From an uncultured Actinomycetota bacterium (GTDB taxonomy: Bacteria > Actinomycetota > Humimicrobiia > Humimicrobiales > Humimicrobiaceae), in assembly GCA_964556165.1 (NCBI GenBank), contig CAZKVH010000003.1:16270-80269 (forward strand): a stretch of 64,000 nt of DNA. The letters run 5' to 3'. Position 1 is the stretch's first letter. Each line of letters starts with the position of its first letter. The position numbers and the translations under genes are program-made. This document shows positions 29,550 to 43,114 of this stretch, piece after piece. The notes beneath the pieces were generated by a model. It did no database searches. It saw only the letters and a list, made by a program, of their open reading frames with translations, and was not told the origin of the DNA.

Positions 29550-30185
29550 ATGAAAAAAGGTTTATTTATAACTTTTGAGGGACCGGACGGTTCCGGAAAA
29601 ACTACACAGATAAAACTGCTGAGCGATTATCTTGAAAAAAAGGGGTTTGATGTATTACTTACCGTAGAGCCGGGTGGTACGGAAGTTGGCCGGAAGATAC
29701 GGGATATACTGCTTACAGCGGAAAAGGTGGACATTTCTGCATGGGCTGAGACTTTTTTATTCCTTGCATCAAGAGCAGAGCTGGTATCAAAAGTGATAAA
29801 GCCGGCTTTAAGTGAGGGCAGGGTTGTAATATGCGACCGCTTCTTTGATTCAACAGTTGTTTATCAGGGTGTTGCAAGAGGGCTTGGAGAGAAAAAGATT
29901 CTGGATATGAGTCTTCTGGCCACCGGCGGGCTGGTACCTGATATAACTTTTCTACTTCTTGTAGATGTGAAAAGAGGAAAGAAGAGAATAGATAGCGCAA
30001 AAAGGGGCACGGATAGAATTGAGATGGAAGAAGATGATTTTAAAGAAAAGATTTACAGCGGTTATCTTAAAATAGCAAGAGGGAATAAAGACAGATTCGT
30101 AGTTATTGATGGTGAAAAGAGTATTGAAAATATATTTGAAGAGATAAAAAACAGGGTCTATAAATATCTTAAAGATTTAAAATGA
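29550..30185 (+). CDS. tmk: Thymidylate kinase
   Basis: FITFEGPDGSGKTTQ, EPGGT, LFLASRA and CDRFFDS motifs. Confidence 0.97.
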   Translation: MKKGLFITFEGPDGSGKTTQIKLLSDYLEKKGFDVLLTVEPGGTEVGRKIRDILLTAEKVDISAWAETFLFLASRAELVSKVIKPALSEGRVVICDRFFDSTVVYQGVARGLGEKKILDMSLLATGGLVPDITFLLLVDVKRGKKRIDSAKRGTDRIEMEEDDFKEKIYSGYLKIARGNKDRFVVIDGEKSIENIFEEIKNRVYKYLKDLK

Positions 30186-31249
30186 AAATACTGAGTGATG
30201 CCGGTTTCTTAATTGGAGACGATGTTAACCAATCAAATATAAAGTCGCTTTCAAAGATGGTGGAAAGCGATAATATTTCCCATGCATATCTTTTTTACGG
30301 GAATAGTATGGAGCTACTTCTAAAACTGGCACTGGAATTTGCTGCAGCTATTAACTGTCCCGATAATGGATGTGGCAGGTGTCTTATATGCAGAAATACG
30401 CTTAAAGGTATTTACCCCGATGTTTTGATAGTTGAGCCGGAAGGTAGCGTGCTGAGGATAGAAGAGATTAAAAAGTTACAGAGATTCATGGGGCTCAGTT
30501 CATATAATAAGGGGAAAAAGATATGCATTATAAAGGAATGTGAACTTATGAACGCGGAGGCTGCAAACAGGCTTCTAAAAACACTTGAGGACCCTCCAGA
30601 TAATGATAGTGTATTCATATTGCTCACAGAAGAGATATCAGCGATGCTTCCTACGGTTGTTTCGAGATGCCTGGTTTATAGCTGGGATTTGAGGCTCGAT
30701 GCTGATATCAGCAAGGATTCAGATTTTAAAATGATTGATAAATATTTAAATGAGGGTATTAAAAATATGTTAATTCCCCGGGAATTGCAGGATAAAAACC
30801 CTGCAGTACCTTTAAACCTTACGCTGAGACTTATCGAATTACTTAAAAAAATGGAGGCAGCTGTTAAGGCAGATCTGGAAAAAGAATTCATGGAGTTTGA
30901 TAAGAGTAATTTTGATAAAAGTGATTTTGCTAAATACATTGAAATTCTCAAATCGAAGCATAAAAGAAAAATAAGCAAATTTCACAACTTAGCTATGGGA
31001 AGGATTTTTGATATAATATCTGCCTGGCTTGAAGATATTCTTGCAGTGAAATATGGAGCAGGAGAGGAAGGTCTTAATTTTGAAAAGAATTATAACTTTA
31101 TATACAGAAATATTGAAAGTGTTAGAATAGAAGGGATTTTTGAGCTGATGGAGATAATAAAAAGAAATAAAAGTTATTCTGTTTATTCAGTTAACTCGGA
31201 ATTGGCTCTGGATAATATTTTTCTTAAGTTTCAGGGTATATTTATATAA
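30182..31249 (+). CDS. holB: DNA polymerase III delta' subunit
   Basis: HAYLF, Zn cluster C..CGRCLIC, AANRLLKTLEDPP and LPTVVSRC; follows tmk. Confidence 0.88.
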   Translation: MKILSDAGFLIGDDVNQSNIKSLSKMVESDNISHAYLFYGNSMELLLKLALEFAAAINCPDNGCGRCLICRNTLKGIYPDVLIVEPEGSVLRIEEIKKLQRFMGLSSYNKGKKICIIKECELMNAEAANRLLKTLEDPPDNDSVFILLTEEISAMLPTVVSRCLVYSWDLRLDADISKDSDFKMIDKYLNEGIKNMLIPRELQDKNPAVPLNLTLRLIELLKKMEAAVKADLEKEFMEFDKSNFDKSDFAKYIEILKSKHKRKISKFHNLAMGRIFDIISAWLEDILAVKYGAGEEGLNFEKNYNFIYRNIESVRIEGIFELMEIIKRNKSYSVYSVNSELALDNIFLKFQGIFI

Positions 31250-31260
31250 GAGGTGAGATT

Positions 31261-32133
31261 ATGGCTTTGATTGTGGGAGTAATATTTAGCAGGAATGACA
31301 TAGTACATTATTGTGACCCGACGGGGGTGGAGTTAGAAGTTGGGAATAAGATAATTTGCAATCTTGATGAAGGAGTAAAAGAGATTGGAGAGGTAGTTGT
31401 ACCCCCCGTGGATATTAACGAGGCTGATATTACCAACCCTTTAAATAAGGTGGTAAGGAAAGCAACTTATTATGATTTATCTGTTGATGAATTAAATCGT
31501 GAAAAAGAAAAAAAGGGATTTGAGAAATTCAATCAGCTTGCTGATGGATATAATCTCAAGATGAAGCTTGTAAATGTCCATGTTATGTTTGATAAAAGCA
31601 AAATGATATTCTATTTCACTTCAGAAAAAAGAGTTGATTTCAGGGAAATGGTAAAAGAGCTTGCTACTTATTTTAAAATGAGGATAGAATTGAGGCAGAT
31701 TGGTGTAAGGGACGAAGCAAAGATGGTGGGGGGACTGGGACCGTGCGGGAGAGACCTTTGCTGTAAGAGCTTTTTGACTGATTTTGAGTCCATTTCTATA
31801 AAAATGGCTAAAGATCAAAATCTTCCTTTAAATCCCTTTAAAATATCAGGTGTCTGTGGGAGGTTGATGTGCTGTCTCAAGTATGAGTATGATACATATA
31901 AGGAGTTTATCGAGAAGGCACCTGCGAGGGGAATGAAAGTAAAATCCAGCTATGGTACCGGCTGGGTATATGGATATGAACCTCTGAATCAATCCATAAT
32001 AGTAGAATTTGATAACGGGACCAGGAAGAATGTTCAGCTTTCTGAAGTAGAGGTTACAGGAGAGAGGATAGACCTGGAAAGGCATAATGATAATGGGGCT
32101 GATCCAGAAGATGCTAAAGATAGCGAGACATAA
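31261..32133 (+). CDS. ricT: PSP1-domain protein (YaaT/RicT)
   Basis: RVDFRELV-like RVDFREMVKELA, RQIGVRDEAK, GPCGRDLCC and SGVCGRLMCCLKYE motifs. Confidence 0.92.
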   Translation: MALIVGVIFSRNDIVHYCDPTGVELEVGNKIICNLDEGVKEIGEVVVPPVDINEADITNPLNKVVRKATYYDLSVDELNREKEKKGFEKFNQLADGYNLKMKLVNVHVMFDKSKMIFYFTSEKRVDFREMVKELATYFKMRIELRQIGVRDEAKMVGGLGPCGRDLCCKSFLTDFESISIKMAKDQNLPLNPFKISGVCGRLMCCLKYEYDTYKEFIEKAPARGMKVKSSYGTGWVYGYEPLNQSIIVEFDNGTRKNVQLSEVEVTGERIDLERHNDNGADPEDAKDSET

Positions 32134-32152
32134 AATATTTAAGAGTACAGTT

Positions 32153-32177
32153 AAACCCGGTCTCGAGTTGGGTTTTT
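32153..32177 (+). terminator. Possible intrinsic terminator after ricT
   Basis: AAACCCGG-tctcgag-TTGGGTTT stem (two G-U pairs) ending in a T run. Confidence 0.4.
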
Positions 32178-32186
32178 AATTTATAT

Positions 32187-32262
32187 GCCGATGTAGCTCA
32201 ACTGGTAGAGCAGCTCATTCGTAATGAGCAGGTTACCGGTTCAAGTCCGGTCGTCGGCTCCA
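32187..32262 (+). tRNA. tRNA-Thr(CGT)
   Basis: Cloverleaf with GCCGA..TCGGC acceptor stem, GCTCA-TTCGTAA-TGAGC anticodon arm, GGTTCAAGTCC T-arm and encoded CCA. Confidence 0.97.
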
Positions 32263-32318
32263 GTATAAAGAAATAAGATTAATTAATGTATTGGACTATA
32301 CGGGTGAAAGAATAACTA

Positions 32319-34019
32319 TTGATAATAAATGAATTAAAACAGGAAATTTATAAATTTCTTGAGGACCTGACCGGAAAAGAGCTTGATGCGGTACTGTGGA
32401 ACATTGCTGTTGAAGAACCTAAAAACGAAAAATTTGGCGACCTTTCGACAAATGCTGCTATGGTACTTGCACCTTTACTGAGAAAAAATCCCCTGGAAAT
32501 CGCCGGAATTCTTGAAAAAAAGCTATCCTCTGAATTTAGCGGGATTAATGATGTAAATATAGCTAAACCGGGGTTTGTTAATTTCAACTTAACTGACGGT
32601 TTTATAAAAGAATCTCTTAAAGAAATCATATCCTTAAAAGGAAACTTTGGTTTTAATCATAGCGGAAAAGGGGCAAGAGTGCACATGGAATATGTTAGCT
32701 CAAATCCTACCGGTGACCTTCATATAGGGCACGGGAGATGGGGGGCTCTGGGAGATAGCCTGGCAAATATTTATAATGCCAATGGATACGAAGTATTCAG
32801 AGAATATTATGTTAATGACTACGGCTCACAGGTAGAAAAATTTAGCGAATGTGCTGAGAGTTTGTATTTAAAGCATTTTGGAATAAACGTTTCTTATCCT
32901 GAAGATGGTTACCCGGAAGAAAACGTATCGATAGCAGTTGAAAGACTTATTAAAAAACATAATGATTCTTTTATCATTGAAAAGGATGGGGAAAAAGAAG
33001 TAGACAGAGAGACTTTTAGAAAAGAGATAATAAATATTATGGTTTCATATATATCCGGGACGCTGGGTATGATGGGGGTTGAGTATGACGGGTGGTTTCG
33101 CGAAAGCTCGCTATATGAAAATTTCAATTTTGAAGAGGTGGTTGAAGAACTTAAAAACAGAGACCTTGTTTACTACAAAGATGACGCTCTGTGGTTTAGA
33201 GCTTCACGTTTTGTAGATGATAAAGATAGAGTAATAGTAAGGAAGGGCGGAAGCCCAACTTATTTTGCTTCGGATATATTATATTTAATAAATAAAGTAA
33301 AAAGGGGTTATGATAGGATTTTATATATTCTGGGTGCGGATCACCACGGTTATGTAGACAGGCTGAAAGCAATTGGGAAAGCACTCGGAATTACAGAGGA
33401 TAAAATCGTAGTTATTATAGGACAGCTGGTAAAAATATTTGATGGCGGGAAGTCTCTAAAGATGTCAAGAAGGAAGGGCAGGATTTATACTTTAAGGGAT
33501 CTGGTTGAAGAGGTTGGCAAAGATGCGGTGAGGTACTTTTTTAGCATGGGTTCTTTTGATTCTCCTCTGGATTTCGACATATCACTTGCAAAACAGAAAT
33601 CAAATCAAAACCCGGTCTTTTATGTTCAATATGCACATGCGAGGGTGGAGAGCATAATAAAAAAAATAAAGGAGGCTAACCTTATAGATTTCGATTCAGG
33701 GGATTTTTCTATTGATAAGATAGATATATCAAAACTGAGGTTTAAAGATAAGAGTGAAAGAAAGCTGGCAAAAATAATGATTTTGTACCCTGACACAGTT
33801 TATTCAAGCTGCAGGAACAATTCTCCACATTTTGTCACCCAGTATTTATACAGGCTGGCTGCCGAATTCCATTATTTTTACAATAACTATAGAGTGATTA
33901 ATGAGAGCAAGAGTGGAATTACGGTTGATTCGGATAGATTTATTTTAATTTTACTGTTCAAGCAGGTACTTGAGAATGCTCTTAAGTTGCTTGAAGTCGA
34001 TGCGCCGGAGGAAATGTAG
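32319..34019 (+). CDS. argS: Arginine-tRNA ligase
   Basis: FGDLSTN, EYVSSNPTGDLHIGH, GADHHGY, KMSRRKG and YVQYAHAR motifs. Confidence 0.97.
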   Translation: MIINELKQEIYKFLEDLTGKELDAVLWNIAVEEPKNEKFGDLSTNAAMVLAPLLRKNPLEIAGILEKKLSSEFSGINDVNIAKPGFVNFNLTDGFIKESLKEIISLKGNFGFNHSGKGARVHMEYVSSNPTGDLHIGHGRWGALGDSLANIYNANGYEVFREYYVNDYGSQVEKFSECAESLYLKHFGINVSYPEDGYPEENVSIAVERLIKKHNDSFIIEKDGEKEVDRETFRKEIINIMVSYISGTLGMMGVEYDGWFRESSLYENFNFEEVVEELKNRDLVYYKDDALWFRASRFVDDKDRVIVRKGGSPTYFASDILYLINKVKRGYDRILYILGADHHGYVDRLKAIGKALGITEDKIVVIIGQLVKIFDGGKSLKMSRRKGRIYTLRDLVEEVGKDAVRYFFSMGSFDSPLDFDISLAKQKSNQNPVFYVQYAHARVESIIKKIKEANLIDFDSGDFSIDKIDISKLRFKDKSERKLAKIMILYPDTVYSSCRNNSPHFVTQYLYRLAAEFHYFYNNYRVINESKSGITVDSDRFILILLFKQVLENALKLLEVDAPEEM

Positions 34020-34141
34020 GATAAAAATAAATCTTGATTAATGTTTGATTAAATAATTTAATTAGATTTATGCATTAGAGGAAACCAGTATTATATTCAG
34101 GTCAATTTGTATTGCCAAACGGAAATAAGAGGAGCAGTTAG

Positions 34142-35467
34142 ATGATTCTCCCGGTAACTTATAAGATTAATGAAAAAAAACATCTGGTTATTGGCGGAAA
34201 TGATATAGTCGAGCTAAAAGAAAGATATAAAACTCCACTTTATATCATGGATATTGCTACTTTAAAGAATCAGTGTGCAACTTATAAGAAGAGTTTTGAT
34301 TTTTCTGATATAAACGCTGGCATCATTTATGCCGCCAAAGCATTTATATGCACAGCAATGTGCCAGCTTATAGAAAAAGAAGGACTTGGATTGGATGTCT
34401 CTACCGGTGGCGAGCTCTTTATCGCTCTTAACAGCGGCTTTCCAGCGGAAAGTATTTATTTTCATGGTAATAATAAATCAGAGGAAGAAATACAGTATGG
34501 TTTAGAAAATAAAGTCGGATATTTTATGGTAGATAATTTTACAGAACTTGAGACACTGGGCAGATTATGCAGCCAGAATGGAGTAAAACAGAAGATTTTT
34601 TTAAGGGTAAATCCCGGAATTAAAGCAGATACGCACGAGTACATACAGACAGGAAAGGTGGATTCAAAATTTGGTTTTAGCATTTACAATAGAGCGGCAA
34701 TGGAGGCTGTTAAAAGAGCAGCAGAATATAAAAATCTTGAAATTTCAGGCATCCACGCTCATATAGGTTCTCAGATATTTAATGTATCCTGCTACGATAG
34801 GCTTATTGAAGTTATGCTAAAGTTTATAAGTGACATTAGAGATAAGATTGGCATATCGGTAAATAATATAGATATTGGTGGCGGGTTGGGTATAAAATAT
34901 ACACCTGAGGATATAACCACGAGTATAGAAGATTTTGCAGTGCTCGTTCATAAAGCAGTTATAAAATATCAGAAAAAATTTAATGTAGAATTAAGTAAAT
35001 TATACATTGAACCGGGAAGGTCAATTGTCGGTAATGCAGGGGTCACTCTTTATGAAGTTGGTACGATTAAGGATATAGATGGTTCAAAAAAGTATATTAT
35101 GGTTGATGGAGGTATGTCAGATAATATAAGACCCATGCTTTATAAGGCTAAATATAATGCTTATCTGGCAAATAAGATGGAGGAAAATGATAATTCTAAA
35201 GAAACAGGGAAATACAATTATTTAATAGCCGGCAAACATTGCGAGAGCGGGGATGTGATAATTAACGATATAAAATTACCACTGGTTTCCAGAGGTGATT
35301 TTATAGTCGTAGCAACAACGGGAGCTTATTGTTATTCAATGTCCAGTAATTATAACAGCCAGCCCAGGAGCGCGGTAGTTGCTGTCGAGGACGGAAAAAG
35401 CTGGGTCTGGGTAAAAAGGCAAACTTATAAGGATTTAGTGATGGGAGATGTTAGACTATATGAATAA
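34142..35467 (+). CDS. lysA: Diaminopimelate decarboxylase
   Basis: YAAKAF (PLP Lys), HGNNKS, SKFG, HAHIGSQI, EPGRSIV, DNIRP and CESGD motifs. Confidence 0.96.
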   Translation: MILPVTYKINEKKHLVIGGNDIVELKERYKTPLYIMDIATLKNQCATYKKSFDFSDINAGIIYAAKAFICTAMCQLIEKEGLGLDVSTGGELFIALNSGFPAESIYFHGNNKSEEEIQYGLENKVGYFMVDNFTELETLGRLCSQNGVKQKIFLRVNPGIKADTHEYIQTGKVDSKFGFSIYNRAAMEAVKRAAEYKNLEISGIHAHIGSQIFNVSCYDRLIEVMLKFISDIRDKIGISVNNIDIGGGLGIKYTPEDITTSIEDFAVLVHKAVIKYQKKFNVELSKLYIEPGRSIVGNAGVTLYEVGTIKDIDGSKKYIMVDGGMSDNIRPMLYKAKYNAYLANKMEENDNSKETGKYNYLIAGKHCESGDVIINDIKLPLVSRGDFIVVATTGAYCYSMSSNYNSQPRSAVVAVEDGKSWVWVKRQTYKDLVMGDVRLYE

Positions 35468-36788
35468 TGAAAATAAAAGCATGGATAATATCAATATTGG
35501 AATGATAGGCTTTGGATATATTGCCAGCGGCGTTTTTTCTCTTATTCAGGGGCAGAAAGATTATCTTGCAAAGAAAATAAGGAAAAACATTAACATTGTA
35601 AGAATCGCGGAGAGAAATTTAGAAAAGATTGACAGCTCTTTTCTAAAGAAGTTTAAAGATATAAAGATAAGCAGCAATGCAGATGACGTTATAGCAGATA
35701 AGGATATTGATATCGTCGTAGAGCTTATTGGAGGTATAGACCCTGCTTATGACTATATCTATAGGGCGCTGGATGCTGGCAAATATGTCGTTACCGCAAA
35801 TAAGGACCTTATTGCCAATAAGGGGGGAGAACTTTTTAAAGTAGCAGAAAAAAACAATGTCGACATATTATTCGAAGCGAGTGTTGGTGGAGGTATACCT
35901 ATTATAGGCCCCTTGAAATCTTCTCTGGCTTCTAACAACATAAATAAAATCGTAGGGATAGTTAATGGTACCACAAATTATATACTTACCCGTATGGAAA
36001 AGGATAACCTATCGTTTGATGATGCTCTGGCAAAGGCACAGGAGCTTGGTTATGCAGAAAAAGCAAATCCATCATCGGATATAGAGGGTTATGATGCCGC
36101 ATGTAAACTGGCAATATTGAGTACAATTGCCTTTAACTCAAGAGTTAATTTAAGTGATGTTTATAAGGAGGGTATAACAGGTATTTCGCATGACGATATA
36201 AAAAATGCTATGGATATGGGTTACAGAATAAAACTGCTCGCTATTGGTATTGAAGAAGATGGAGTAATTAGCGTCAGGGTACATCCCGCACTTATACCTG
36301 TAGACCACATACTTGCTTCAATTGAGGATACGTTTAATGCGGTATATGTTTATGGCAATTATGTTGGTGAGATAATGAGTTATGGAAGAGGTGCAGGAGA
36401 TAGGCCAACCGCAAGTTCTGTAGCGGGGGATATTATAAAAATTGCGAGGAGATTCGACCGTAAAAAGAAAGGCATAATTTACGGATGCAGCTGCTTTGAG
36501 AATAAAAAGTTTCGTTTGATAGATGATACGAAAAACAAGTTCTACATTCTTATGGATGTACTGGATGAGCCGGGTGTCCTGGCTAAAATTGCAGAGGTAT
36601 TTGGTGAAAATAAGGTTAGCATTAACTCAATGGTTCAGAAGCAAGTTAGCAAAGGGACAAGCGCAAGACTGATATTTATAACTCACGAAGTGCTAAATAA
36701 AAATCTATATAAGTCCATAAAAGAGATATCCAGACTTAATGTTGTCGATAAGATTTTAAGCATAATAAGGGTAGAAGATCTGGATTAG
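35460..36788 (+). CDS. hom: Homoserine dehydrogenase with C-terminal ACT domain
   Basis: GFGYIASG, VVTANK, FEASVGGGIP, NGTTNYIL, GRGAG and DEPGVLAKI motifs. Confidence 0.96.
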   Translation: MNNENKSMDNINIGMIGFGYIASGVFSLIQGQKDYLAKKIRKNINIVRIAERNLEKIDSSFLKKFKDIKISSNADDVIADKDIDIVVELIGGIDPAYDYIYRALDAGKYVVTANKDLIANKGGELFKVAEKNNVDILFEASVGGGIPIIGPLKSSLASNNINKIVGIVNGTTNYILTRMEKDNLSFDDALAKAQELGYAEKANPSSDIEGYDAACKLAILSTIAFNSRVNLSDVYKEGITGISHDDIKNAMDMGYRIKLLAIGIEEDGVISVRVHPALIPVDHILASIEDTFNAVYVYGNYVGEIMSYGRGAGDRPTASSVAGDIIKIARRFDRKKKGIIYGCSCFENKKFRLIDDTKNKFYILMDVLDEPGVLAKIAEVFGENKVSINSMVQKQVSKGTSARLIFITHEVLNKNLYKSIKEISRLNVVDKILSIIRVEDLD

Positions 36789-36842
36789 ATAGAAGTATAA
36801 CATTATTGATTTTTATGAGCCTTCAATCTTTGAAGGATATGA

Positions 36843-38327
36843 ATGATGTATTACAGAAGTACCCGCGGGTCTGATAATAATAAAAAATCTTCAGATGCAA
36901 TCATTAGAGGAATTGCATCTGATAGGGGACTTTTTGTCCCGGAAAGTTTCCCTGTTATTGATGTGTCTTTTGAAAGTCTTTTAGATCTTGATTACAAGGA
37001 TGTTGCATTATATGTAATTGGCAAATTTTTTACTGATTTTACACAGGAAGAACTTAGATACTGTATAGAAAAGGCTTATGATGAAAAATTTGATGATTCT
37101 GAAATAGCACCGCTGGTAGAAAAGGGCGATGTTTTTTTCCTTGAATTGTTCCATGGTCCCACCCTTGCGTTTAAGGACATGGCTTTATCCATACTGCCGC
37201 ATTTATTAAAAATAGCCATGTCAAAAAGTGGCGCAGGTAAGGAAATAATTATTCTAACTGCTACTTCAGGAGATACAGGAAAGGCGGCACTGGAGGGTTT
37301 TTCCAATGTTGAAGGGACGAAAATAATTGTATTTTACCCTGATGGAGGTGTAAGCCAGATTCAGGAAAGGCACATGAGAACCCAGAAAGGTGAAAATACA
37401 TATGTAATCGGGGTTAGAGGAGACTTTGATGATACACAACGGGGGGTAAAGGAAATTTTTTCTGACAGTGATTTTAACCTTATGCTGAATAGAAAGGGTT
37501 ATATTTTTTCTTCTGCAAATTCCATCAATATCGGCAGGCTTATTCCCCAGATAGTTTATTATATACATGCTTATCTAAAGTTAATAAAATTTGAAAAGAT
37601 TAAACCGGGAGAGCCGGTAAATATAGTCGTTCCAACGGGGAATTTTGGGAATATTCTGGCTGCTTATTATTCAAAGAAAATGGGGCTTCCCGCAGGGAAG
37701 TTTATATGTGCTTCTAATGAGAATAATGTGCTTTATGATTTTATAAAAACCGGTTCATATGATAGAAAGAGAAAACTAATACTGACCAGTTCGCCTGCAA
37801 TGGATATCCTGGTTTCCAGTAACCTGGAGCGGCTTCTTTATGATATTTCAGGAAACGATAGTACATTGATAAATAAGCTTATGGATGAGCTTGGTGAAAA
37901 AGGGGAATTTAAGATTACCGATGAGATGAAAAGAAGGATGGAAGATTTTTACGGCGGCTTTGCGACGGATGAAGAAACATATAAAACCATAAAGTTTGTA
38001 TTCTCGAACCTGAACTATCTTATAGATACCCACACCGCAGTTGGATATAATGTTTATAAGAAGTATTTAAAAGACAGTGGTGACGATACAAAAACAATTA
38101 TAGTTTCGACTGCAAGCCCCTTTAAATTCCCCGGGAGTTTGTGCACTGCACTGGATGAAAAATACAGGGGTATGGATGAATTTGCTTTGCTTCCTGTATT
38201 ATCGAAGATAACCGGGCTAAGGATTCCGGAAACAATAAAAAACCTTGAAAATAAAGAGATTCTTCACTCATCAGTTTGCGATCCAGAAGAGATGAAAAAT
38301 GTTATATCGGATATCCTGAGTTTGTGA
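36843..38327 (+). CDS. thrC: Threonine synthase (long form)
   Basis: YRSTR, ELFHGPTLAFKD, ATSGDTG, SANSINIGRL, VPTGNFGNI and STASPFKF motifs. Confidence 0.96.
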   Translation: MMYYRSTRGSDNNKKSSDAIIRGIASDRGLFVPESFPVIDVSFESLLDLDYKDVALYVIGKFFTDFTQEELRYCIEKAYDEKFDDSEIAPLVEKGDVFFLELFHGPTLAFKDMALSILPHLLKIAMSKSGAGKEIIILTATSGDTGKAALEGFSNVEGTKIIVFYPDGGVSQIQERHMRTQKGENTYVIGVRGDFDDTQRGVKEIFSDSDFNLMLNRKGYIFSSANSINIGRLIPQIVYYIHAYLKLIKFEKIKPGEPVNIVVPTGNFGNILAAYYSKKMGLPAGKFICASNENNVLYDFIKTGSYDRKRKLILTSSPAMDILVSSNLERLLYDISGNDSTLINKLMDELGEKGEFKITDEMKRRMEDFYGGFATDEETYKTIKFVFSNLNYLIDTHTAVGYNVYKKYLKDSGDDTKTIIVSTASPFKFPGSLCTALDEKYRGMDEFALLPVLSKITGLRIPETIKNLENKEILHSSVCDPEEMKNVISDILSL

Positions 38328-38419
38328 AGAATTTTGAGAAGAATACTGCATTATTTGTGTTATATCGCCGGTTTTTTTATCATTAATAATTATTACTAAA
38401 ATATAAGGATACGGGTTTT

Positions 38420-39634
38420 ATGAAGTACATAATAATACTTATGGATGGGGTAGCTGACTACAGGCTGGCAGAGCTGGGAGATAAGACACCCCTGGAGTTC
38501 GCGAATACCCCGGCTATTGATAGTATGGTAAGGAAAAGCAGGGTTGGTCTTGTAAAAACTGTTCCCGACGGTATGGCACCCGGAAGTGATGTTGCAAATC
38601 TTTCTGTTATGGGGTATGACCCAAAAAAATATTATACAGGTCGCTCATCGCTGGAAGCTGCCAGCATGGGTTTGATACTCTCCGAAAAAGATGTTTCCTT
38701 CAGGTGCAATCTTGTAACATTATCCCCTGAGAAGAATTATGAACAGAGGACCATGGTTGATTACAGCGCAGGGGAAATTTCTACCGATGAATCAAAAATA
38801 TTAATTGGACTCATTGGCAGTAAGCTTCAAACAGAAAAAATAAAATTTTATGCTGGTGTAAGCTACAGACATATAATTATATGGGAAGAAGGTATGGATA
38901 AAAATATTCTTACCCCTCCTCATGATATATCCGGGAAGAAAATTGCAGACTTTTTACCAGAAGGTCCTGCAGGCAGTGTTTTCCTGGATATGATGAAAAA
39001 GAGTTCTGTCATATTAAAAGAACACAGGATAAATAAAGAAAGGGTAAAGCGGGGTCTCAATCCTGCAAATTCAATATGGATATGGGGTGAAGCCAGGAGG
39101 CCTTCTATTGATAGTTTTTATAAAAAATATGGATTAAAAGGCTCAATAATATCAGCAGTAGACCTTATAAAAGGTATCGGTATTCTGGCGGGGCTTGATT
39201 CAATTCCGGTAGAAGGAGCAACCGGTACAATAGATACTAATTTTAAAGGGAAGGCGGATGCTGCAATAAATGAACTTACCGGTGGTAAAGACTTTGTTTA
39301 TATCCATCTTGAAGCTACTGATGAATGCGGACATCAGGGGGATATTAAAAATAAAGTCAGGGCAATCGAGCTGATAGACACCGGTATTATCGGACCTGTG
39401 AAAGAAGCAATGGACAGAGAAGGTTATGATTACCGTATTATGGTACTGCCGGACCACTATACACCTATTTCATTGAGAACGCATTCTTCGGAGCCCGTTC
39501 CCTTCTTGATTTATGACAGCAGTAAAATAATTGATAATAATCTGGAAGGATATGATGAATTTTCCACCGGAAAGACAGGTCTTTATTTTGATGAAGGCTG
39601 GAAACTTGCAGATTATTTCTTTGGCAAAGAATAG
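38420..39634 (+). CDS. Cofactor-independent phosphoglycerate mutase family protein (ApgM-like; proposed homoserine kinase by context)
   Basis: DGVAD, PGSDVAN (phospho-Ser), YTGR, HLEATDECGH and PDH.TP...TH motifs; directly after hom-thrC. Confidence 0.85.
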   Translation: MKYIIILMDGVADYRLAELGDKTPLEFANTPAIDSMVRKSRVGLVKTVPDGMAPGSDVANLSVMGYDPKKYYTGRSSLEAASMGLILSEKDVSFRCNLVTLSPEKNYEQRTMVDYSAGEISTDESKILIGLIGSKLQTEKIKFYAGVSYRHIIIWEEGMDKNILTPPHDISGKKIADFLPEGPAGSVFLDMMKKSSVILKEHRINKERVKRGLNPANSIWIWGEARRPSIDSFYKKYGLKGSIISAVDLIKGIGILAGLDSIPVEGATGTIDTNFKGKADAAINELTGGKDFVYIHLEATDECGHQGDIKNKVRAIELIDTGIIGPVKEAMDREGYDYRIMVLPDHYTPISLRTHSSEPVPFLIYDSSKIIDNNLEGYDEFSTGKTGLYFDEGWKLADYFFGKE

Positions 39635-39803
39635 GTCCAAAATCATTTGCAGCTATTTTATTATTATTATATTATTTCTAAGGTAAAAAAGGGTTTATAT
39701 TAATTAAAACTATATTTAATTAGAAGAAGAGTTTTTATTTTTATGGATTTTACGACTTAAATAAAATTTTTTTTAATAACTTTTAGAGTAAAGGAGTTTT
39801 AAC

Positions 39804-40700
39804 TTGGCAAGATGGAGTACTGCTAAGATAGTCGGAATTACTTTTCTCTGTCTATTTGTTCTTTTTTTGTTTTCAGGCGGATGTTTTGTCATGGGACTTC
39901 TCGGAAGAAACTTTAGCGGAACATCTTATTCCTACGTTGGTGGCGATTCAATTTATGAAATAAGAATTGAAGGAGTAATTTCAGCTGAAAAGTATTCCAA
40001 TATCTTAAGCGGTGGAACAGTTACTCCTGAAGAAATAATGAGCCAGCTTGATGAAGCCAAAGGTAACCCTGCCGTAAAGGCGATTCTGTTAAGAGTTAAT
40101 AGCCCGGGCGGAAGTGCAGCAGCTTCACAGGAGATATTTGAGGAAGTTAAAAAGGTTGAAAAACCTGTTGTAGTATCTGTTAGTGAAACATGTGCTTCGG
40201 GAGCGTATTACATTGCAAGCGCAGCTGATAAGATAATTGCCAATCAATCTTCTTCTGTTGGCAGCATCGGAGTTATTATGCAGATTCCGAACTACGAAGA
40301 ATTATATGAAAAGCTGGGATTAAAATATACTACTATAAAGCAGGGTGAGTATAAGGATGTAGGAAGTCCTGACAGGCCGCTTACCGCCGAGGAAATAGAG
40401 TTGTTCGAAGCTCAGCTGGATGTAATTTACAGGCAGTTTATATTGGATATTGCTGAAGCAAGGAATATGGATATAAAAAGGGTAGAAGAGCTTGCAACAG
40501 GATGGGTATTCCTGGGGTCGGAGGCCCTTGAGCTCGGTCTTATTGATGGTATAGGTAATTATAAAGATGCTGTGGAAGTGGCTGCAGAGCTGGGAGGAAT
40601 AGAGGGAGAGCCTGTTATAATAAAGCAGGAATTCACTTACTCGCTGATGGATCTGGTTTTTGGTTATTTTATTAATTCAGGTATTGAGAAGTTATTCTAA
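39804..40700 (+). CDS. sppA: Signal peptide peptidase SppA (36K type)
   Basis: N-terminal TM helix, RVNSPGGS, ASGAYYIA, VGSIGV and KQGEYKD motifs. Confidence 0.93.
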   Translation: MARWSTAKIVGITFLCLFVLFLFSGGCFVMGLLGRNFSGTSYSYVGGDSIYEIRIEGVISAEKYSNILSGGTVTPEEIMSQLDEAKGNPAVKAILLRVNSPGGSAAASQEIFEEVKKVEKPVVVSVSETCASGAYYIASAADKIIANQSSSVGSIGVIMQIPNYEELYEKLGLKYTTIKQGEYKDVGSPDRPLTAEEIELFEAQLDVIYRQFILDIAEARNMDIKRVEELATGWVFLGSEALELGLIDGIGNYKDAVEVAAELGGIEGEPVIIKQEFTYSLMDLVFGYFINSGIEKLF

Positions 40701-40799
40701 TAGTGTTTAAATAGAGGGTTATATAAACATGGATTCTGTATAAATGTAAGGTTGTTAGTCAGGTAAATTTTATAAAAATATATAATTTTTTAAAGAAAA

Positions 40800-41111
40800 A
40801 TGATTGAGAATATTATTAATCAAATCAAAGAGACCGAAGAGAAAGCAAAGGAAATTATAGCTTCTTCTAAAAAAGAATATAAAAAAATTATAGAGGATGC
40901 ATATAAAAGGTCTGAAGAAATTGTAAAAGAAGCTGAAGAAGAGACTAAATCTATGATTGCTGGAGCTGAGAAAAAAGCAAAGGATGAAGCAGCCATAGAA
41001 AAAGAAAAAATGGAAAAAGATTATAGCGCAAAGCAGGATGAAATAAGAAATATCTTTAATTCCAACTGCGAAAAAGCTATAGAGAAAATTATTCAGAGGA
41101 TTTTAGGTTAA
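40800..41111 (+). CDS. V/A-type ATPase peripheral stalk subunit G/H
   Basis: Charged coiled coil (IKETEEKAKEII) at the head of the operon. Confidence 0.75.
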   Translation: MIENIINQIKETEEKAKEIIASSKKEYKKIIEDAYKRSEEIVKEAEEETKSMIAGAEKKAKDEAAIEKEKMEKDYSAKQDEIRNIFNSNCEKAIEKIIQRILG

Positions 41112-43114
41112 TGGCAGTAGCTAAGCTAAGTAAACTTTTTATTATTTCACATAAATCTGATACGGAAGCAGTTCTTAAACAATTACAAAAAACTTCTATC
41201 TCTGTAGAAGTTTCTCCGTATACAGGGGAAATTAATCTGGATATTCCTGAATCCGGCGTGAGCAGGGAACACAATATTGAAGTAAAGAGTGCTCTGGAAA
41301 TTCTAGGTTCATATAAAGGGGGCAGTAAAGAAGAGATAAAAAAATCCTTAACACGTGCCGGCAAAATTGTAATAAAAAGAAGTGAGTACGAGGATATTTT
41401 AAAAAACAGAGATTTTGAAGGGATAATTAACAATATACTGGAAATTGGAGAAGAGATAGAGACTCTCAGCGATAAGATAGCCGGTACAGGGCCCGAAATT
41501 AAGCGGCTGAGGGATTGGGCTTGCTACAAGGGTAAACTTGAAGATATAGGGGAGACTGATACCAGCACTATACGGCTGGGTATTATAAGGTACAGGGAAA
41601 ATGATTATGAAGAAATAAAAAAGAATCTGGATGAAAATAATATTGTATGTGAAGAGTTATGGTCAGATAAAAACAGTGCCCGTGTGATTTTAGCCTATCA
41701 TAATCTGTTTGGAAAAGAAGCTGAAGAATACCTTGGGAGCATTAATTTTGAAGAAGCAGGGCTGGAAGGTTACAGTGGCACTATTGATGAGAATTTAAAT
41801 AAAATTAAAAAAAACGTAGATATGAGTGAAGAAAGAAAATCAAAATTACAATCTGAATTAAAAGAGATATCAGATAAGTATGAAAAAGTTTTGACTGTTT
41901 ACCTCGATTATATTGAAAATAACCTGGAAATCGAAGAGGCTGTAAGAAAGGGATTTTCAACGGAATCTGTTTCCTTTCACACTGCATGGGTAAAAAAATC
42001 GGAAGTGAAAAAAGCTTTTTCAATAATTGAAAGGTTTAAATCGGTAAAAGTAATGGAGATTCAGCCCGATGAAGATGAGAGCATACCGGTTATTCTTGAA
42101 AATAAACCGCTGTTTAAACCTTTTGAGATAGTGGTGGACCTTTATGGAGTCCCGCGTTATTTTGAGATTGACCCCACGCCTTTTGTTTCTTTATTCTTTG
42201 CTCTGTTTTTTGGGCTATGTCTTACCGATGCGGGATACGGGTTAATACTGGCAGCACTGGCTCTGATATTTTCCTATAAAATGAAAAGCGCCAGGAAATT
42301 CCTTATGTTAATTTTTGCCGGTGGTATCTTTTCTGTTTTTGCCGGAGCAGTCTTTAACGGATGGTTTGGCGATCTTCCACAGTATCTTGGGATGGAAGGC
42401 TTTTTCTCCAGACTGGCGATACTCGGGGACCCTGTTAAGTCAAATGAAGGTTCTATGAATTTTTTCAGGCTGGCGTTAGCCCTTGGAGTGGTTCAGGTAA
42501 TATTCGGACTTTTTATAAGCTTTTTTGATAGCCTGAAAAGAAAAGACTGGGAAGCTGCATTTTTTGATGGTCTCCCCTGGATAATTATTATAATACCGCT
42601 GGTAATAATTTTATTATCCTCTCAAATAGGAGTAAATATGAAGCTGGTTTCCAGTCCTATTTTCCCGGCAGGAGTTATGAAGATTCTTATATGGCCGGTT
42701 ATTATTGGTGCTCTAATGATTATTTTATTTAGTGCCCGGGATATGAAAAGCTGGGGATTTAGATTATTCATGGGAGTTCTAAACCTGACTGTGGTAAATG
42801 GACTTACTTCTTATCTGGGTGATTTTCTTTCCTATATCAGGTTGATGGCACTTGGACTGGTTACTGCAGGTATTGGAGTTGCCATTAATACCATAGCGTT
42901 CCAGTTAGGCTCGGTTCCGGTTGTAGGAATAGTAATATTGATTGTAATTCTGGTTTTTGGCCATATTGCAAATATCGGGATTAATGTTTTAAGCGGTTTT
43001 GTGCATACTTTAAGGCTGCAATATGTAGAGTTTTTCCCTAAATTTTATGCAGGAGGGGGAAGACCGTTTAGAAATTTAAGTGACGAACATAAATATGTAA
43101 CAATAATTGATTAG
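41111..43114 (+). CDS. ntpI: V/A-type ATPase subunit I (a)
   Basis: EIDPT, TDAGYG, SYIRLMALG (essential Arg) and HTLRLQYVEFF motifs. Confidence 0.95.
   Translation: MAVAKLSKLFIISHKSDTEAVLKQLQKTSISVEVSPYTGEINLDIPESGVSREHNIEVKSALEILGSYKGGSKEEIKKSLTRAGKIVIKRSEYEDILKNRDFEGIINNILEIGEEIETLSDKIAGTGPEIKRLRDWACYKGKLEDIGETDTSTIRLGIIRYRENDYEEIKKNLDENNIVCEELWSDKNSARVILAYHNLFGKEAEEYLGSINFEEAGLEGYSGTIDENLNKIKKNVDMSEERKSKLQSELKEISDKYEKVLTVYLDYIENNLEIEEAVRKGFSTESVSFHTAWVKKSEVKKAFSIIERFKSVKVMEIQPDEDESIPVILENKPLFKPFEIVVDLYGVPRYFEIDPTPFVSLFFALFFGLCLTDAGYGLILAALALIFSYKMKSARKFLMLIFAGGIFSVFAGAVFNGWFGDLPQYLGMEGFFSRLAILGDPVKSNEGSMNFFRLALALGVVQVIFGLFISFFDSLKRKDWEAAFFDGLPWIIIIIPLVIILLSSQIGVNMKLVSSPIFPAGVMKILIWPVIIGALMIILFSARDMKSWGFRLFMGVLNLTVVNGLTSYLGDFLSYIRLMALGLVTAGIGVAINTIAFQLGSVPVVGIVILIVILVFGHIANIGINVLSGFVHTLRLQYVEFFPKFYAGGGRPFRNLSDEHKYVTIID

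Follow-up and report, generated by a model that had tools for sequence, protein, structure and literature searches.

A HomK-type gene in the thrB position of the threonine cluster of an uncultured actinobacterium

The DNA analyzed here, referred to as the window, is a stretch of 64,000 nucleotides from an uncultured, Humimicrobiia-like actinobacterium (contig CAZKVH010000003.1 of assembly GCA_964556165.1). It carries argS, lysA, hom, and thrC in the order typical of actinobacteria, and the next slot, that of the homoserine kinase gene thrB, is taken by a gene for a protein resembling ApgM-type phosphoglycerate mutases (positions 38420-39634). Very probably, this gene encodes HomK and replaces the homoserine kinase step, by the mechanism and with the evolutionary history proposed below. 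Judged by its sequence, the encoded protein is a regular representative of the HomK family (ThrB2, TIGR02535) with an intact catalytic site, and as such it would complete the threonine pathway of an uncultured actinobacterium from a salt marsh.

It is important to point out that the family itself already has a name, curated entries in TIGRFAMs and GapMind, and genetic validation, and in this sense the finding at this locus is not new. Ashniev et al. (2022; PMC9026213) named the family ThrB2, reported that its occurrence is complementary to that of thrB, and described in-place thrB/thrB2 swaps in Bacteroidetes. A GapMind preprint of 2026 (10.1101/2024.10.14.618325) renames it HomK and shows that BT2402 of Bacteroides thetaiotaomicron and the divergent DET_RS08350 of Dehalococcoides mccartyi rescue an Escherichia coli thrB::kan mutant. 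A preliminary description of this DNA, made from the letters and a list of open reading frames, had called the homoserine kinase role of such proteins proposed and not firmly proven; that status is overtaken by the complementation with BT2402 and DET_RS08350 and by the naming of the family.

Family membership, active site, and genomic context

The 404-amino-acid (aa) protein exceeds the cut-offs of three NCBIfam models, namely NF003242 (520 bits; cut-off 426), TIGR00306 (514; 320), and TIGR02535 (510; 446.3), and it scored 509.6 bits against the last of these in the whole-genome search, again above the trusted cut-off. No similarity to GHMP kinases was seen among the NCBIfam models, and the ThrB model TIGR00191 did not recognize the protein. 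The solved ApgM structures 3kd8, 3idd, and 2zkt match it at E ~2e-52, and the putative nucleophile and metal ligands (D9, S56, D301, H305, D345, H346, and H355) are all present. This agrees with the preliminary description, which had read the PGSDVAN motif and the ligands as intact; translation and alignment gave the same result. All nine active-site positions that we tracked are intact in the window protein and in 20/20 of its closest relatives. The numbers of D9 and S56 are identical in BT2402, and D345/H346 correspond to D346/H347 of that protein.

The residue at the presumed specificity position is Glu298. It lies in the motif IHLEATDECGH and aligns to the Lys of VNIKATDVAGH in 3kd8, the ApgM of Thermoplasma. 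By its numbering and by this Lys column of the solved ApgMs, E298 would be the equivalent of E299 of BT2402, which has been proposed as the specificity residue, with Lys in its place in mutases (10.1101/2024.10.14.618325). We followed this column through a family alignment of 112 rows: the window protein, 80 loci retrieved with it, a further 12 genes of the phylum that score as HomK, and 19 ApgM-like paralogues with low scores. Glu was found in 92/92 HomK-type rows and Lys in 19/19 ApgM-type rows. The nucleophile and metal ligands were kept in both groups, S56 being invariant in 91/92 Glu-type rows (the remaining row is a fragment without the N terminus). In a quick tree of 111 rows rooted on the Lys-type rows, the Glu-type rows formed one clade that includes the window protein, with a value of 100 in the Shimodaira-Hasegawa-like approximate likelihood ratio test (SH-aLRT).

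Further positions separate the two types, the HomK residue being given first in each case: 151 (H against G or A), 166 to 169 (P-P-H-D against D/N-T/S-D-P), 220 (W against L), 222 (W against R or K), and 248 (D against P). The window protein shares with the ApgM enzymes (2zkt, 3kd8, and 3idd; TIGR00306) the fold, a Ser nucleophile, and a two-metal site with its DxxxH and DH ligand motifs. It differs from them in having Glu for Lys298 and Trp for Arg/Lys222, so that it has neither the mutase Lys nor a basic residue at 222, and in having P166-P167-H168-D169 and D248 where ApgM has D/N-T/S-D-P and Pro. These type-specific residues (E298, W222, H151, PPHD 166-169, and D248) are concrete targets for mutagenesis.

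Among the Lys-type proteins, we observed a subgroup (L103, L112 to L115, L120, and L121; families f2, f13, f17, and f24) in which Gly follows the catalytic Ser and Glu replaces His305. Its pattern is DSGKDEDHH, its members match NF003160 above the cut-off, and some of its genes share one genome with HomK.

The genome to which the window belongs is a metagenome-assembled genome (MAG) of 1.36 Mb in 40 contigs, 93.55% complete. Within the argS-lysA-hom-thrC-homK cluster, open reading frames and an NCBIfam scan revealed no GHMP kinase, bearing out the gene order given in the preliminary description. In the genome as a whole, TIGR00191 gave just two matches, both below threshold (ispE and galK), and neither thrB_alt (TIGR00938) nor ThrH (TIGR02137) was matched. 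The genes for aspartate kinase (ask) and aspartate-semialdehyde dehydrogenase (asd) are adjacent on contig C1. As hom and thrC are present as well, the kinase step is the only one between aspartate and threonine without a classical gene. A canonical gpmI (TIGR01307, 727 bits) is located in a pgk-tpiA-gpmI operon on contig C2, so the ApgM-like gene is not the sole phosphoglycerate mutase gene of the genome. The preliminary description had named two observations that would speak against its reading, a thrB elsewhere and the lack of any other phosphoglycerate mutase; as neither type of thrB nor a thrH was found and a separate gpmI exists, neither observation was made. Its proposal that the protein is a phosphotransferase making O-phosphohomoserine is thus supported by the HomK-type Glu and by this gene content.

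In several respects the window gene resembles the HomK genes of known phenotype, BT2402 and DET_RS08350. These include its TIGR02535 score, the numbering of Ser56 and Asp9, the presumed specificity Glu, its position beside hom and thrC, and a genome in which thrB was not found and a separate phosphoglycerate mutase is present. It differs from them in that its host is an uncultured low-GC (guanine-plus-cytosine) actinobacterium rather than a member of the Bacteroidota or Chloroflexota, in that it sits in the fixed argS-lysA-hom-thrC-thrB frame and is paired with a long ThrC, and in that it is known from sequence alone.

Distribution in Actinomycetota and origin of the thrC-homK pair

The GC content is ~36%. 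Despite this, the 20 closest loci (65-78% identity) are all from Actinomycetota MAGs, one of them labeled Candidatus Humimicrobiaceae (class Ca. Humimicrobiia), and for this reason the actinobacterial frame assumed in the preliminary description is correct. The order argS-lysA-hom-thrC-homK is common to these 20 loci as far as their contigs reach and, given also its recurrence with a short thrC described below, did not come about by chance. Near-identical DNA is also present in salt-marsh metagenome runs, which may represent the source sample; among the public runs with near-identical sequence, there was no RNA run.

We surveyed an even sample of 151 Actinomycetota genomes, with that of the window (G000) included and thrB called at E <= 1e-25. 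HomK was found in 36 genomes and thrB in 105, no genome had both, and 10 had neither. The HomK genomes comprise 31 above the cut-off, 4 at 403-437 bits, and 1 in which the end of a contig truncates the gene. Counted as well are seven unpublished genomes (G001, G018, G048, G082, G088, G120, and G148), all on the thrB side; they enter the tallies alone, contributing neither to the alignments nor to any individual claim. Because the sampled relatives are not independent of one another, this mutual exclusion is a pattern and not a statistic.

Within the window's own family, eight of the nine sampled relatives carry homK with no thrB found, and these eight genomes are 95-98% complete. The exception is G115, from a sister genus, which has ricT-argS-lysA-hom-thrC-thrB at the corresponding place, with a short ThrC of 352 aa and a ThrB of 311 aa. 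A genome of another family (G020) has lysA-hom-thrC-thrB, again with a ThrC of 352 aa. In eight other actinobacterial families, nine genomes show (argS)-lysA-hom-thrC-homK(-sppA) with a short ThrC that is 60-66% identical to that of G115. A long thrC together with homK was seen in the window's family and in one other family (G032), there with a different long ThrC. The slot after hom therefore has three states in Actinomycetota: a short thrC is followed either by thrB or by homK, and a long thrC by homK. Of the actinobacterial families sampled, at least 10 place homK in the thrB slot, making this arrangement common in the phylum and the window case not unusual. The window's family is distinguished by the accompanying change of ThrC type. 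The argS-lysA-hom-thrC-thrB frame offers a clean natural series of non-orthologous replacements, from thrB to homK to homK with an apparently foreign thrC.

A functional tie between the long ThrC and HomK was considered and rejected, as many HomK genomes have a short ThrC and some ThrB genomes have a long one. Two side observations concern genomes of the "neither" kind. In family f14 (G012, G042, G057, G072, G086, G128, and G142), a long ThrC scoring ~370 bits to that of the window was present in 7/7 genomes, none of which had thrB at E <= 1e-25 or HomK, and the models used did not identify a homoserine-phosphorylating enzyme. In G028, which belongs to the window's class (family f2), we found no thrB, HomK, or long ThrC and only a Lys-type ApgM paralogue; this organism may be a threonine auxotroph or may use an unrecognized route.

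Between the long ThrC of the window and the short one of G115, identity is only 24% (over 183 aa). The window ThrC is 52-59% identical to homK-adjacent ThrCs of Bacillota (Clostridia) and Spirochaetota, whereas its identity to the other long ThrCs of actinobacteria does not exceed 48%. In a ThrC tree, the window's family (SH-aLRT 95) grouped with the homK-adjacent Bacillota and Spirochaetota proteins (94), apart from the other actinobacterial long ThrCs. On these comparisons, the long ThrC is the derived state in the window's family. HomK shows the same affinity: the window protein is 54-60% identical to Bacillota HomKs versus 40-48% to other actinobacterial HomKs, and the 111-row quick tree nested the window's family in a Bacillota-dominated clade (SH-aLRT 97-99). 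No such inversion was seen for hom, which is, if anything, closer to actinobacterial homs. The most economical reading, and one that we regard as reasonably probable, is that thrC and homK were co-acquired as a linked pair: the long ThrC, and probably HomK too, would be newcomers akin to the linked proteins of Bacillota and Spirochaetota.

The tree tests were less favorable to this history. Approximately unbiased (AU) tests did not reject the grouping of all actinobacterial HomKs in one clade, either with an outgroup and the LG+G4 model (p 0.258) or without an outgroup and with a mixture model (p 0.547), in which case the constrained tree was better by 2.08 log-likelihood units. The nesting inside Clostridia is therefore not robust, and the stronger statement, that this nesting reflects horizontal gene transfer into Actinomycetota, was downgraded after both tests. 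In addition, the non-actinobacterial rows had been chosen as best matches to the window, and over the phylum as a whole there is no coupling between the long ThrC and HomK.

Alternatively, HomK may be old and vertically inherited in Actinomycetota, with only thrC exchanged from short to long and the closeness to Bacillota due to export or to an unresolved root. The AU results, the slightly better constrained tree, and the use of the same slot in so many actinobacterial families are what this history would lead one to expect. It fits less well with the contrast between the HomK and hom identities, with the SH-aLRT values of the full quick tree, with the equally foreign affinity of the adjacent long ThrC, and with the presence of thrB, not homK, in the sister genus G115. 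We consider vertical inheritance possible yet clearly the less likely history, and it touches only the evolutionary half of our explanation.

Alternative functions, mechanism, and phosphate donor

Some observations weigh against the functional assignment to HomK. The equivalence of E298 to E299 of BT2402 is indirect, and the second-site numbers printed for BT2402 (D274, H278, and H325) do not fit the numbering offset. The evidence for HomK activity is entirely genetic and comes from two distant homologues, BT2402 and DET_RS08350. Finally, the genome is 93.5% complete.

This last point would leave room for homoserine to be phosphorylated by another enzyme, either a thrB in the unassembled 6.5% of this 40-contig MAG or a promiscuous kinase, with the HomK-like protein serving some other phosphotransfer. 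A precedent exists in Glu-bearing homologues adjoining cobD, for which a different product, threonine phosphate, has been predicted (10.1101/2024.10.14.618325). The window gene, however, adjoins hom and thrC and not cobD, its place in the tree and its TIGR02535 score are those of a typical HomK, and the eight more complete genomes of the family also carry homK with no thrB found. We regard this explanation as highly improbable.

A shade less probable still is that the protein is a real cofactor-independent phosphoglycerate mutase that stands beside thrC by chance. Its best NCBIfam match, NF003242, bears the name "cofactor-independent phosphoglycerate mutase," the apgM model TIGR00306 scores nearly as high, and among solved structures archaeal ApgM mutases come closest. 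The name of the first model is misleading, though. NF003242 (PRK04200, an equivalog model) was above its cut-off on 5/5 further Glu-type proteins (437-591 bits; L026, L059, L086, L091, and L124) and on 0/4 Lys-type proteins (255 bits or no match; L106, L112, L117, and L120), which instead match NF003160, NF003104, or TIGR00306. It passes on every Glu-type protein tested and on no Lys-type one and is, in effect, a HomK model. Also, the substrate-binding Lys of mutases is Glu in the window protein, the glycolytic operon already contains gpmI, on which the genome relies for glycolysis, and homK itself has no glycolytic context. Across phyla, the gene keeps its linkage to hom and thrC, and HomK and thrB are mutually exclusive throughout the 151 genomes. 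As NF003242 recognizes the HomK clade under a mutase name, automatic annotation calls HomK a phosphoglycerate mutase; homoserine phosphotransferase HomK would be the better name for the window gene. A HomK relic devoid of catalytic function is practically excluded, as the intact active-site positions in the window protein and its closest relatives refute this reading at the sequence level.

HomK is thus the preferred reading, and for its mechanism we propose the following. HomK would be a two-metal enzyme of the alkaline phosphatase superfamily, descended from ApgM-type cofactor-independent phosphoglycerate mutases. By homology, a phosphate donor would phosphorylate Ser56 at the two-metal center, and the phospho-enzyme would then hand the phosphate to the hydroxyl of the L-homoserine made by Hom, after which ThrC would turn O-phosphohomoserine into threonine. 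Glu298 in place of the mutase Lys and Trp222 in place of Arg/Lys may adapt the pocket to a zwitterionic amino acid instead of a polyanionic phosphoglycerate, a substrate change that the loss of two basic pocket residues would fit. HomK shares with ThrB (GHMP family, TIGR00191) the pathway step and the operon slot, as illustrated by G115, in which thrB lies exactly at the place of homK. The two share neither fold nor chemistry: with ThrB the phosphate comes straight from ATP, and for HomK a phospho-enzyme and a donor other than ATP are expected.

The donor is probably not ATP, and the candidates include phosphoserine, 2- or 3-phosphoglycerate, and phosphoenolpyruvate. With a phosphate-ester donor, on general biochemical grounds, the transfer would be about isoenergetic and would be pulled by the irreversible ThrC reaction. 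The gene content is compatible with more than one donor. A glycerate kinase is present in the genome (TIGR00045, 461 bits), in which MOFRL was not found. Contig C2 carries, at ~48.9-51.1 kb, a class-V aminotransferase gene (L126:1423-2589, 388 aa) directly upstream of serA (L126:2626-3639; phosphoglycerate dehydrogenase, 436 bits); the aminotransferase best matches BhcA- and PhnW-like proteins and is only weakly similar to serC. With glycerate kinase, serA, and the aminotransferase present, phosphoglycerate and phosphoserine donors are both possible. Canonical serB (TIGR00338) was not found in the window's genome. This model is missing from 125/151 genomes of the phylum whatever their kinase type, including most ThrB genomes and G115, and the anti-correlation with SerB is for this reason uninformative as to the donor.

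Phosphoserine has been offered as a speculative donor for HomK (10.1101/2024.10.14.618325). HomK would then be a phosphoserine:homoserine phosphotransferase with amino acids as both substrates, which fits the K298E change, the loss of R/K222 to W, and the gain of His168-Asp169; we hold this to be rather unlikely. A possible functional analogue in that case would be ThrH of Pseudomonas aeruginosa, a phosphoserine:homoserine phosphotransferase of the HAD family (TIGR02137), which is not homologous to HomK and was not found in the window's genome. If phosphoserine were the donor, HomK would also release serine, linking serine and threonine synthesis, and would help to fill the common "missing SerB" gap. 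The question of the phosphate donor is general to HomK and not specific to the window locus.

Layout of the locus

The features of the locus are listed in Table 1. The genes hom, thrC, and homK lie on one strand, separated by gaps of 54 and 92 nt. An Rfam scan of positions 30000-42000 found only the tRNA gene and no riboswitch, T-box, or leader. A scan for consensus promoters and terminators gave nothing usefully above shuffled sequence, and the homK-sppA spacer showed no significant structure (z 0.5).

Table 1. Features of the threonine cluster and its surroundings (window coordinates)
Feature	Position	Strand	Evidence or remark
ricT	31261-32133	+	Upstream of tRNA and argS
Terminator-like hairpin	32153-32175		Just before tRNA gene
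tRNA gene between ricT and argS	32187-32259	+	Rfam RF00005, 69.8 bits; upstream edge of cluster
argS, arginine--tRNA ligase	32319-34019	+	TIGR00456, 376 bits (cut-off 262)
lysA, diaminopimelate decarboxylase	34142-35467	+	TIGR01048, 470 bits
hom, homoserine dehydrogenase	35448-36788	+	NF004976, 515 bits; 20-nt overlap with lysA
thrC, long-type threonine synthase, 494 aa	36843-38327	+	TIGR00260, 240 bits
homK (ThrB2), ApgM-like, 404 aa, in thrB slot	38420-39634	+	TIGR02535, 510 bits
PGSDVAN motif with catalytic (phospho)serine S56	38579-38599	+	Translation
IHLEATDECGH motif	39302-39334	+	Translation
Glu298 codon, specificity position	39311-39313	+	Lys in true ApgM mutases
sppA	39804-40700	+	TIGR00706, 221 bits; outside the pathway

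Downstream, sppA is followed in the window by a V-type ATPase operon. We also observed sppA as a conserved downstream neighbor in the majority of the related homK loci and in many actinobacterial thr clusters, with homK of the window type or with other homK.

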